Of a stretch of DNA of 64,000 nucleotides, positions 21,028 through 23,841 are shown in pieces. Made by a program: the position numbers and the translations under genes. The stretch is from NCBI GenBank assembly GCA_014435945.1, contig GCA_014435945.1_4088.1; one strand, 5' to 3'. Position 1 is the stretch's first letter; the number at the start of each line of letters is the position of its first letter. The notes beneath the pieces were generated by a model, which saw only the letters and a list, made by a program, of their open reading frames with translations, was not told where the DNA came from and did not search any database. The stretch comes from a phage.

Positions 21028-22356
21028 ATGTCTACTCAAAACAACGATATCCTGAACGTAAAACTGACTCCTAAGAAAGCTAAAGAAGCAATGGCACTGG
21101 CTGACATGATTCAAGATAGCCTGATGATTTGGGGTAGCCCTGGTATCGGTAAATCTGCCATCGCACGTCAATACGCTGATGAGAACTACCCACTGCGTAA
21201 AGATAACGTGGCAAAAATTGAGTTCATGAAACAACAAATCGAAGCTGATACTGAAAATGCTGATCAACTTCGCCGTGAACTGGCAGCGTTTGAAGCCAAA
21301 CTAATCGACCAAGACACTAACTTTATCGATTTCCGTTTGTCTCAGATTGAACCAAGTGACCTTCGCGGTATCCCAGTTCCAGAGAAAGTGTTCCTTGATA
21401 TGGATGGTAAGCAACTGATTGAATCTGAACTGGCTAGTGCACAAGATTACATCGCTGAAACAGCAGTTGTGTGGGCAGCACCTAAAGTACTGAAACTGTC
21501 TCCAGATTGGAAAGGTGTTATTCTGTTTGACGAAATCAACTCTGCAATGCCGATTGTACAGGCAGCGTCTTATCAGCTAATCCTCGACCGTTGTGTTGGT
21601 GAGATGAAGCTACCTAAGACTGCACTGATTCTCGCAGCAGGTAACCGTGAAACTGATGGCGGTGTAACGTTCTCTCTAGCTACACCACTGCGTGACCGTA
21701 TGACCCACATCGAAATGATTCCTTATCATCAAGATTGGATTAACGATTATGCGATTGGTAAGCGTTTGAACCCAGCAACTGTAGCGTTCATCAACAACAC
21801 TGGTGCTAAACACTTCAACACCCTTAGCCCACAAGATCCTTCTCACTGTGGTGGTACTTCTCCACGTTCATGGGAAGCAGTAGCACGCTACGAAGATCTG
21901 AAGAAAGTTAAGAACATTGATAAAGAAGTGTTCCGTGCGATGATTGCAGGTCGTGTTGGTGAAGGCGTAGCAACTGAATACATCGAGTATGTTGATAACG
22001 TAGCTAAACTACCAGATACCATGTCCATCCTACAGGGTGAGATTAAAGAGATTGATGCTTCGCTTGATATTTCCGCGAACTACTTCATCACTCTGAATCT
22101 GGTTTACAAAATTATCGACCTCTACAATGAGAAGCAAGAACAACGTCTACCAGTGGAAGATTGGGGTAAGCTGTGCAACAACTTCATCACCTTCCTAGAC
22201 CATAACTTCTCTGCAACTCAAGCAGAACTGGCAGTACTGGCGATTCGTACCATCACGCTTCATAAAGTAGCGATTACGATTAAAGATGTACCAGCGTTTA
22301 AAGACTTCGTTATGAAGTACTCTGACCTAGTACGTAAAGCACGCTCTCTTGGTTAA
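21028..22356 (+). CDS. MoxR-type AAA+ ATPase
   Basis: 442 aa; Walker A GSPGIGKS, Walker B ILFDEIN, sensor AAGNRE. Confidence 0.7.
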   Translation: MSTQNNDILNVKLTPKKAKEAMALADMIQDSLMIWGSPGIGKSAIARQYADENYPLRKDNVAKIEFMKQQIEADTENADQLRRELAAFEAKLIDQDTNFIDFRLSQIEPSDLRGIPVPEKVFLDMDGKQLIESELASAQDYIAETAVVWAAPKVLKLSPDWKGVILFDEINSAMPIVQAASYQLILDRCVGEMKLPKTALILAAGNRETDGGVTFSLATPLRDRMTHIEMIPYHQDWINDYAIGKRLNPATVAFINNTGAKHFNTLSPQDPSHCGGTSPRSWEAVARYEDLKKVKNIDKEVFRAMIAGRVGEGVATEYIEYVDNVAKLPDTMSILQGEIKEIDASLDISANYFITLNLVYKIIDLYNEKQEQRLPVEDWGKLCNNFITFLDHNFSATQAELAVLAIRTITLHKVAITIKDVPAFKDFVMKYSDLVRKARSLG

Positions 22357-22371
22357 TAATTAAAAAGAGTG

Positions 22372-22400
22372 TTGACAAGGAGGATACCACATGGTATCCT
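22372..22400 (+). promoter_or_regulatory. possible promoter (TTGACA-N17-TATCCT) overlapping a terminator hairpin
   Basis: same AAAAAG-N-TGTTGACAA context as P1/P2. Confidence 0.3.
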
Positions 22401-22407
22401 TCTTTTA
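22381..22407 (+). terminator. rho-independent terminator
   Basis: AGGATACC/GGTATCCT stem followed by TTCTTTT. Confidence 0.55.
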
Positions 22408-22431
22408 TCTTAACTAAACGAGGAAATACAA

Positions 22432-23841
22432 ATGTCAGATAAACGTTTCAGTGATGTTACTCCGGCTCTCCAGAAAGAATGTCAAGATCGTCTGATCTTA
22501 GCTCGAACATCTTTAATGCTAACATTCCCATTCTTTGGTGTACTGGCTTCTCGTCTGCGTCCAGTTGCAAACAACACATGGTGTCGTACTTTGGCTGTAG
22601 ATGGTAAGCATTTATTCTACAACGTAGAATTCATCATGGGTATTCAGGACCAATCCAAAAAGTCAGCATACGAAGAAGCAATTCGTGAGAAACATCCTGA
22701 AGTAACTGAAGAACAACTTAAAGAAATGACAGAAGGTTTGACTGATGAAAACCTGATTGCAGTTATTTGTCATGAAATTCTTCACTGTGCATATGACCAC
22801 TTCTTGCGTCGTGGTATGCGTGACCCGCAGCGTTATAACCGTGCTGCTGACTATGCAATTAACCAGATTCTTGTTCGTGATAAAATTGGTAAAATCCAAA
22901 GCCAATGGCTGTACGATAAAAAGTACGATGGTATGACTGCTGAAGAGATTTATAACATTCTCGAAGAAGAAGATAAACAGGATCAAGACGGGGAAGGTGA
23001 AGGAAATCCACAGGCTGGTAGTGGTGAGGGTGAAGGTAAATCACGCGGTACTTTTGGTGATATCAAAGATGGTAAAGGCAAAGGTACAACAATCGACCAG
23101 CATGACGTTCCACAAGAAGGTCAAGAAGGTGGTTCAAGTGATAAACAAAAACGTGATTATATGGATGATTTCAAAACAGCAATGATGAATGCTGCTCGTG
23201 CAGGTGGTACTCCTGCTGAAATCGCACGTATGATTAACAACTTCAAAGAACCTAAGATTGACTGGCGTTCCAAACTTCACCGCACACTGCGTAGCTGGTT
23301 GAAGTCTGATGCAACTTATCAAAATCCTAATCGTCGTTCATGGGGTGCTGGTTTTGGTAGTTCTGGTTCATTCTACGGGAATCCAATCTTCCCTGGTATG
23401 AAACCAGATGATGATATTGATATTGCAATTGCACTAGATGCATCCGGTTCTATCTCTGAAGATATGCTCCGTGATTTCATCAGTGAAGTACTGGGTATCA
23501 CTAAGCAGTTTAAACAATTTAAAATCCGTATCATGACGTTCGATACTGAAGTTTATACTGTTAAAGATTACAAAACTGGTGAAGAGAGTAAGATTCTCGA
23601 ATATCCAGTGAAAGGTGGTGGTGGTACTGACTTTGAAGCAGTATGGGTTCATATGAAGCATGACAACTATAAGCCTAAACAGCTTATTATGTTTACCGAT
23701 GGTGAGCCGTGGCAGTCATGGGGTGATCCTGATTACTGTAAGACACTGTTTGTTATCCACAGTAATCCTAACAAACAAGCACCATTTGGCGAAACTGTAC
23801 ACTACGAATATGAAGCTGACAAAAAGCGTCAACGTAGCTAA
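22432..23841 (+). CDS. metallopeptidase-like + von Willebrand factor A (vWA) domain protein
   Basis: 469 aa; HEILH zinc-binding-like motif in the N-terminal half; C-terminal MIDAS-like DASGS within IAIALDASGSISEDM. Confidence 0.6.
   Translation: MSDKRFSDVTPALQKECQDRLILARTSLMLTFPFFGVLASRLRPVANNTWCRTLAVDGKHLFYNVEFIMGIQDQSKKSAYEEAIREKHPEVTEEQLKEMTEGLTDENLIAVICHEILHCAYDHFLRRGMRDPQRYNRAADYAINQILVRDKIGKIQSQWLYDKKYDGMTAEEIYNILEEEDKQDQDGEGEGNPQAGSGEGEGKSRGTFGDIKDGKGKGTTIDQHDVPQEGQEGGSSDKQKRDYMDDFKTAMMNAARAGGTPAEIARMINNFKEPKIDWRSKLHRTLRSWLKSDATYQNPNRRSWGAGFGSSGSFYGNPIFPGMKPDDDIDIAIALDASGSISEDMLRDFISEVLGITKQFKQFKIRIMTFDTEVYTVKDYKTGEESKILEYPVKGGGGTDFEAVWVHMKHDNYKPKQLIMFTDGEPWQSWGDPDYCKTLFVIHSNPNKQAPFGETVHYEYEADKKRQRS

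Follow-up and report, generated by a model that had tools for sequence, protein, structure and literature searches.

A conserved MoxR ATPase and vWA/putative metallopeptidase gene pair in an Asteriusvirus-like jumbo coliphage, with signals that indicate separately promoted, pre-late expression

A MoxR-vWA-metallopeptidase chaperone pair has been described in jumbo phages by Iyer, Anantharaman, Krishnan, Burroughs and Aravind (Iyer et al., 2021, Viruses 13:63; PMC7824862), who proposed, by analogy with Acidianus two-tailed virus, that it serves virion assembly and the processing of structural proteins (PMC7824862). Here we analyze a pair of this kind at positions 21028 to 23841 of a 64,000-nucleotide stretch of phage DNA (GenBank assembly GCA_014435945.1, contig GCA_014435945.1_4088.1), the whole of which we refer to as the window. 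The two genes, for a MoxR-class AAA+ ATPase and an adaptor, or partner, in which a putative metallopeptidase domain is joined to a von Willebrand factor A (vWA) domain with a metal ion-dependent adhesion site (MIDAS), are the same module as the MoxR-vWA(metallopeptidase) pair that Iyer et al. describe for jumbo phages of group 2.2. Neither the gene pair nor the predicted module is hence new, and GenBank records have the label “MoxR ATPase” for the one member and, for the other, “N4 gp25-like protein”, “VWA domain-containing protein” or “putative metallopeptidase”; the novelty implied by a preliminary description of this DNA, made from its letters alone, does not stand. What is newly described here is the presence of sigma-70-type promoters on both genes, a conserved intercistronic terminator, and the stable order of ATPase and partner.

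Direct homologs of both proteins are found in the N4-like phages (Schitoviridae) as gp24 (AAA ATPase) and gp25 (vWFA) (PMC2784036), and the vWFA gene is one of the 14 core genes of that group (PMC10783043). In BLASTP against an N4-like coliphage the ATPase scores E=3e-24 and the partner E=1e-28, and the gene order, the HExxH..H motif and the MIDAS are shared. The jumbo-phage ATPase differs from gp24 by inserts of ~40 residues (helical, residues ~55-96) and ~35 residues (a beta-hairpin, residues ~115-150) and by a longer C-terminal domain, the partner, unlike gp25, has ~30 further helical residues inserted ahead of the active-site helix, and the conserved genes that flank the two kinds of locus are different. 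We found no functional study of DUF2201, sll7028, the N4-like MoxR or N4 gp24/gp25 in the literature. Among the better characterized systems, NorQ/NorD and CbbQ/CbbO, of the MoxR CGN subfamily with VWA adaptors, have NOR and Rubisco as their clients. NorD and CbbO have no peptidase domain, and the phage ATPase is ~170 residues longer than NorQ/CbbQ, at 12-15% identity; the domain-linker-vWA layout of the partner nevertheless resembles that of NorD and BchD. The p618/p892 pair of Acidianus two-tailed virus, compared here by description only, is likewise a virus-encoded MoxR plus vWA system (PMC7824862), but the virus is an archaeal one, the proteins have no peptidase domain, and they serve tail development outside the cell.

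By analogy with the NorQD and CbbQO systems, we suggest that the pair is an ATP-driven, MIDAS-targeted machine for remodeling or proteolysis that would be made before the late phase and would act on a target shared by many large lytic phages, a reading to which we assign a probability of about 0.5. The window shares 99.9% identity with Escherichia phage Turkey3 and ~87% with the Asteriusvirus phages 121Q, PBECO4, G17 and phAPEC6, jumbo myoviruses of 350-386 kb, and by these identities its source is an Asteriusvirus-like jumbo coliphage; the products of both genes are 100% identical to those of Escherichia phage EC.P1. Both open reading frames (ORFs) lie on the plus strand, exactly where the preliminary description had placed them, and their protein features are as follows.

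21028..22356, plus strand: predicted MoxR-class AAA+ ATPase, 442 residues, 49.6 kDa
22432..23841, plus strand: adaptor (partner), 469 residues, 53.5 kDa, made up of a DUF2201_N zincin domain, a disordered linker and a DUF2201 vWA domain
22771..22863, plus strand: putative zinc site, HEILHCAYDH (residues 114-123) and NRAADYAIN (residues 136-144)
22972..23139, plus strand: disordered linker rich in Gly, Asp, Glu and Lys, residues 181-236, with a predicted local distance difference test score (pLDDT) below 50 at 188-216
23407..23811, plus strand: minimal vWA domain, residues ~326-460, with a complete MIDAS

Five motifs of the ATPase are invariant or nearly so in an alignment of 71 homologs: Walker A GSPGIGKS (residues 36-43, nucleotides 21133-21156), Walker B ILFDE (residues 165-169, nucleotides 21520-21534), sensor-1 AAGN (residues 203-206), the arginine finger LRDR (residues 221-224) and sensor-2 SPR (residues 278-280). 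The roles of these motifs are those we presume from general knowledge of the MoxR family. The protein matches the phage family phrog_1297 (“ATPase”) at E=3e-105, and in a Foldseek search of the PDB with its AlphaFold2 model (pLDDT 88.8, predicted template modeling score 0.81) the first 15 ranks are all NorQ/CbbQ2 entries (E 2e-8 to 2e-6; target-normalized TM-score 0.56-0.63; sequence identity 12-15%), with McrB, RuvBL and the sigma-54 activators ranking below them. A C-terminal helical domain spans residues ~330-442. Pfam is less direct: the ATPase itself stays under the AAA_3 cut-off (17.9 bits vs. 27), has no AAA_5 match and scores 21.5 against a cut-off of 21.2 with the generic AAA profile; AAA_5 matches 23, AAA_3 13 and bpMoxR 10 of the 71 aligned homologs, and weak Mg_chelatase matches occur in the family. 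We attribute the missed AAA_3 and AAA_5 cut-offs to lineage-specific inserts. Sequence searches of PDB chains with both proteins returned chance-level matches only, and full-length profiles found only P-loop or integrin fragments. On its motifs and predicted fold, the protein is a MoxR-class AAA+ ATPase, as its Walker and sensor motifs had first led it to be called.

The partner matches Pfam DUF2201_N, “putative metallopeptidase” (E=3e-36; 125.8 bits, cut-off 23.2), and DUF2201, “VWA-like” (E=1e-21). Its HEILH sequence (residues 114-118, nucleotides 22771-22785) sits in a predicted helix at 105-124, and an HExxH would be expected by chance only ~0.02 times in a protein of this composition. In the family the signature reads HExxHxxxxH, then R, then NxAxDxxxN, and divergent homologs all retain H114, E115, H118, H123, R126, N136, D140 and N144. 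The MIDAS is formed by DASGS (residues 336-340, nucleotides 23437-23451), T399 in GGGT and D423 in FTDG. A PFG motif at the C terminus is conserved as well. Across 80 partner homologs H114, E115, H118, D336, S338, S340, T399 and D423 do not vary, nor do the same HExxH and MIDAS residues in 12 very divergent homologs (26-64% identity) from N4-like, rV5-like and PA5oct-like phages, huge uncultured phages and alphaproteobacterial elements. Invariance over such a range, from jumbo to N4-like phages and alphaproteobacterial elements, points to selection for both metal sites.

The model of the partner (pLDDT 75) has a helical, three-stranded N-terminal domain, the disordered linker and a C-terminal alpha/beta domain; the last adopts the Rossmann-like vWA fold, and both lists of structural matches for the model are filled by vWA entries. 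For the N-terminal domain, a profile search of the PDB gave marginal but consistent results, all 11 matches being M48-type peptidases, with 3c37 (E=6.7e-4) and the minigluzincin MJ1213 (E=2e-3) followed by BepA, HtpX and Ste24; the M48 gluzincins and minigluzincins are the sole PDB families that this profile finds. The alignment covers the HExxH helix and the strand that precedes it, the order of secondary structure (helices, three strands, HExxH helix, second ligand helix) fits M48, and a Brucella homolog passes the Pfam Peptidase_M48 cut-off (21.9 bits vs. 20.3). Unlike the M48 peptidases, the partner is soluble, has no membrane or tetratricopeptide repeat parts and is fused to a vWA domain, and in place of the M48 Glu motif it has NxAxDxxxN downstream and a His five residues after HExxH. 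The preliminary description, which had called this protein metallopeptidase-like on the strength of HEILH and had assigned it a C-terminal vWA MIDAS, is borne out on both domains, on the putative peptidase one by profile matches.

The label “HNH endonuclease”, which the partner carries as phrog_1314 and in many GenBank records, was considered and rejected, Pfam giving only DUF2201_N, DUF2201 and VWA. In phage A5-4 (locus L041, 4450-4944) and in PA5oct (locus L044, 7361-8857) the two genes of the pair are separated by inserted homing-endonuclease genes, and such insertions may plausibly be the source of the label.

The two genes travel together. In a tblastn search of 50,697 phage records the partner was found in 725 and the ATPase in 809, with nearly equal counts for each host genus (partner/ATPase: Escherichia 215/215, Pseudomonas 110/112, Pectobacterium 26/26, Campylobacter 16/16), and the partner family comprises 14,780 clusters at 50% identity (E<=1e-3). 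Among 80 IMG/VR loci chosen by a partner homolog of 36-90% identity, the ATPase lies upstream on the same strand in 79, with a median gap of ~100 nucleotides, and the sole exception has only 44 nucleotides of upstream sequence; many of these loci come from one large clade, so that the counts are not independent. Pairing and order are obligate features of the module, the two genes standing a few genes apart in Vequintavirus and the PA5oct-like phages. The pair occurs in N4-like podoviruses and in rV5-like, Rak2-like and PA5oct-like myoviruses. Its hosts are as diverse as Enterobacteria, Campylobacter, cyanobacteria and marine alphaproteobacteria.

In alphaproteobacterial genomes (Brucella pecoris, locus L023; Rhizobium sp. 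CF080, locus L028; and similar ones) the pair takes a shorter form, in which two to five small ORFs (two in Brucella) separate the two genes and a gene for an ATP-dependent DNA ligase and one for a DnaN-like clamp follow, probably within a prophage-like element. Matches in bacterial “genomes” were accordingly set aside as an independent cellular context: most are contigs of metagenome-assembled genomes or prophage-like regions with the ligase and DnaN.

Expression signals of the two genes bear on when the module is made. The elements around the pair are the following.

20737..20764, plus strand: promoter P1, TTGACA-16-TATAAT, 12/12 to the sigma-70 consensus, with a TGn extended -10 and an A-rich UP-like tract 5' of it
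20829..20856, plus strand: promoter P2, a tandem second perfect 12/12 sigma-70 promoter, of the same design as P1
20871..20891, plus strand: leader hairpin 1, GGCA..TGCC then TTTTT, just 3' of P2
20920..20968, plus strand: leader hairpin 2, AAGGAACTG..CAGTTCCTT then TACTTTTG
20959..20987, plus strand: promoter-like P3, TTTACT-17-TATAAT, 10/12, overlapping the 3' arm of hairpin 2 and 40 nucleotides 5' of the ATPase ATG
22372..22404, plus strand: intercistronic hairpin with a 12-bp stem (22377-22404, dG -19.9 kcal/mol) and a T-rich tail, overlapping a promoter-like TTGACA-17-TATCCT (22372-22400)
23854..23885, plus strand: intrinsic terminator 3' of the partner gene, a 9-bp GC-rich stem then a T run, annotated also in G17

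A hairpin at the intercistronic site is kept in four genera, its sequence differing in Eneladusvirus. Among 49 non-identical ATPase-partner spacers of IMG/VR relatives, 92% contain a hairpin of -10 kcal/mol or below (median -16.9), against 18% of 224 other same-strand spacers (median -5.9 kcal/mol); the Fisher p of 4e-23 is optimistic, the sequences being related. A sigma-70-like promoter precedes the partner in 49 of 60 relatives and the ATPase in 29 of 53, compared with 29 of 247 other genes, and the one upstream of the partner usually ends 25-32 nucleotides 5' of its ATG. We posit that a sigma-70 promoter for each gene, with a terminator hairpin between them, would yield more ATPase than adaptor, in keeping with a hexamer that bears a single adaptor as in NorQD and CbbQO (PMC13036017), and the conservation of hairpin and promoter between the genes suggests decoupled expression at a set ratio.

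As to timing, the Rak2-like phage CBB has three classes of promoter: RpoD-like with an UP element, predicted to be early; TGAAACG-type, before DNA-synthesis genes; and ATAAATA, before structural genes (PMC5259590). The pair in the window has promoters of the RpoD-like plus UP class, as it does in Alcyoneusvirus, and the Eneladusvirus ortholog has a TGAAAC-type promoter, as do the DNA-synthesis genes of CBB. The late motif ATAAATA is absent upstream of both ATPase and partner; it precedes nine other, mostly structural, genes of the window, including, within 110 nucleotides upstream, those at 9559, 12610, 16313, 16850, 26398(-), 43275(-), 44512 and 52517(-). This shorter motif was used because the full T4 late promoter, TATAAATA, was not found in the 64-kb window. 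N4-like phages carry the pair on the early/middle strand, together with RNAPII, dCTP deaminase, ThyX and rIIA, and in LUZ7 the early and middle genes are on one strand and the late structural and lysis genes on the other (PMC9163698). Taken together, these predicted signals point to expression of both genes before the late phase and from separate transcription units.

Upstream of the ATPase, P1 and P2 are conserved in G17, and an Alcyoneusvirus relative has a single equivalent promoter. Leader hairpin 2 is annotated as a terminator in G17, and Alcyoneusvirus retains it with substituted stem bases. The leader (20863-20990) is ~97-100% identical between the window and G17, compared with 87% in coding DNA, and its RNA fold has z=-2.9; an Rfam scan of the leader and spacers found no family. 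The leader could be an attenuator, or the two perfect promoters could produce a short RNA. Perfect extended sigma-70 promoters of the P1/P2 design number three in the whole window, and the third (TG-TTGACAA..GAAyGATGTGw-TATAAT-G) lies 15 nucleotides 5' of a lone plus-strand gene (50129-52483) flanked by minus-strand structural genes, which encodes a 770-residue ClpA/ClpB-type double-AAA+ chaperone (AAA_2 3e-49, ClpB_D2-small).

Three neighbors in the window are possibly associated with the module.

20333..20710, plus strand: upstream neighbor, 125 residues, phrog_15638
23951..24837, plus strand: two downstream neighbors, one of 76 residues, phrog_13789 (23951-24181), and one of 217 residues, phrog_15894 (24184-24837)

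Homologs of these flank the pair in 72-74 (phrog_15638), 57 (phrog_13789) and 64 (phrog_15894) of the 80 IMG/VR loci, and also in Alcyoneusvirus, Eneladusvirus, PA5oct-like phages and huge-phage contigs. They are not found flanking it in N4-like, Vequintavirinae or alphaproteobacterial loci and, being lineage-specific, are not counted as parts of the module. Annotated neighborhoods in Vequintavirinae, Plateaulakevirus and a Planktothrix phage consist mostly of “hypothetical protein” entries. Further downstream, in 24843-26365 of the window, base 25436 is where the gene for a SLOG/DprA-like protein (phrog_768, with a weak Pfam match related to YpsA) stops and that for a thymidylate synthase (ThyA, E=4e-101) begins; this synteny of the two genes is limited to close relatives. 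We also note an extremely acidic, low-complexity “virion structural protein” of 330 residues (phrog_15988) at 18943-19935 and an ORF of 3333 residues at 52517-62518 on the minus strand. In the IMG/VR loci, ~5.4-6.1 kb 5' of the partner, inspection by eye alone picked out QueE-type radical-SAM-like genes (28 loci) and GTP cyclohydrolase I-like genes (14 loci) of the 7-deazaguanine pathway, and a 5'-3' exonuclease (Pfam match) lies at about -3.7 kb from the partner in 67 loci.

How might such a machine work? A cryo-EM study of NorQD (PMC13036017) supplies the mechanistic precedent. By analogy with NorQ-NorD and CbbQ-CbbO, one adaptor would dock through its vWA domain on an ATPase hexamer, a 6:1 ratio for which the proposed excess of ATPase would provide, both proteins being made before the late class with ATAAATA promoters. 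The MIDAS metal of the adaptor would then capture an acidic side chain of the target protein, ATP hydrolysis would pull or twist the linker together with the target, and the tethered zincin would cleave or process the segment so exposed. On this analogy the two-component machine probably acts as a protease. Its role would be that of a conserved core of the intracellular, replication-phase program, neither bound to one type of virion nor a host-specific accessory. A bolder version, which we put forward only tentatively and regard as having the odds against it, is that the pair constitutes a distinct two-component AAA+ protease, unlike FtsH, Lon and Clp, in which a MoxR hexamer drives a vWA/MIDAS-tethered, M48-like zincin to remove or process a protein of the DNA-replication phase, much as Cdc48 works with the zincin Wss1, and that it is core to several families of large lytic phages, its subunit ratio being set by the conserved intergenic terminator-plus-promoter cassette.

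Several observations weigh against a pre-late remodeling or protease machine. The third zinc ligand has two invariant candidates, H123 and, in the next helix, D140, and we found no biochemical data on peptidase activity of the partner family in the literature. The “strong promoters” of the preliminary description are real as regards the two perfect 12/12 sites, but two terminator-like hairpins and the weaker P3 separate P1 and P2 from the ATPase start, so that P1 and P2 may not drive the ATPase. Its suggestion of an early role is reasonable: the promoter type, here and in relatives, favors early or at least pre-late expression, but in N4-like phages it is the late promoters that are sigma-70-like (PMC9163698), and promoter type is hence no guide to timing in every lineage. 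Finally, the pair lies directly 3' of the block of virion structural genes in the window, and the ATPase has been seen by electrospray ionization tandem mass spectrometry in purified virions, as phAPEC6 gp265c and PA5oct EST35_0335.

These last two points also favor the alternative that survives best, the proposal of Iyer et al. (PMC7824862) that the pair is a chaperone for the assembly of head, tail or fiber whose fused peptidase processes structural proteins. It can draw further on the MoxR/vWA proteins needed for tail development in Acidianus two-tailed virus, on the detection of phAPEC6 gp262c, the homolog of the 217-residue downstream neighbor, in virions by mass spectrometry, on the ClpA/B-type chaperone driven by the same perfect promoter design among structural genes, and on the fact that chaperones made early can still act late. 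Yet the partner was not detected in the virions of either phAPEC6 or PA5oct, and the same mass spectrometry lists hold ThyA, SSB, topoisomerase and RNase H, which suggests carry-over of abundant non-structural proteins. The pair is moreover core in phages of very different morphology, from N4-like podoviruses to rV5-, Rak2- and PA5oct-like myoviruses; alphaproteobacterial elements carry it beside DNA ligase and DnaN; in N4-like phages it keeps company with nucleotide-metabolism genes on the strand that is not late; and no late ATAAATA motif stands upstream of it. Where Iyer et al. favor virion assembly, the promoter, terminator and distribution data reported here favor a pre-late role independent of morphology. 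The expression signals hence weaken the published idea, which we consider unlikely while granting it a real share of the probability.

A second alternative is that the pair inserts a cofactor or metal, or activates an enzyme, without proteolysis, as do NorQD, CbbQO, CoxDE, CobST and BchID. HExxH would then be a metal-binding or holding site, and the pair would remodel a phage or host enzyme, for instance of nucleotide metabolism, so that a metal or an inhibitor is loaded or released. Metal-insertion and activase motors are indeed the nearest solved relatives of the ATPase (PMC13036017), and the weak Mg_chelatase matches, the NorD- and BchD-like layout of the partner and the recurrence of ThyA/ThyX, dCTP deaminase and other nucleotide-metabolism genes near the pair all agree with it. 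On the other hand, the catalytic Glu of HExxH, E115, is invariant, as expected for hydrolysis, and no candidate client enzyme was found to co-occur with the pair across lineages, nor any chelatase large subunit nearby. We judge this account improbable.

Just as improbable is the host takeover or counter-defense role raised in the preliminary description, by which the module, made at once after infection, would be a MIDAS-targeted protease inactivating a host defense or housekeeping factor: consensus host-type promoters with UP elements, of a class predicted to be early in CBB, and the setting of the partner in Vequintavirus, where its neighbors are an annotated anti-sigma factor and numerous small ORFs such as early regions typically have, speak for it, but the listing among 14 core genes (PMC10783043) and the order kept in 79 of 80 loci describe a stable core pair and not a patchy, fast-turnover accessory, over so broad a range of hosts any shared host target would need to be a universal one, and searches with PADLOC models (chance-level P-loop matches at E ~0.02 for the ATPase, none for the partner) and NCBIfam (nothing meaningful for either protein) lend it no support.

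Universally conserved genes without an assigned role are few in N4-like phages. The genes read here as encoding an ATP-driven, MIDAS-targeted machine of the pre-late phase are among them, and recur in rV5-like, Rak2-like, PA5oct-like and many uncultured large phages. The observations added here, namely the predicted pre-late, separately promoted expression of the two genes, the conserved intercistronic terminator and the correction of the “HNH endonuclease” label, should be of use in approaching them. Finding the target would supply a missing piece of the biology of large lytic phages, and would extend the mechanistic family of MoxR/VWA systems by an adaptor that bears a peptidase.

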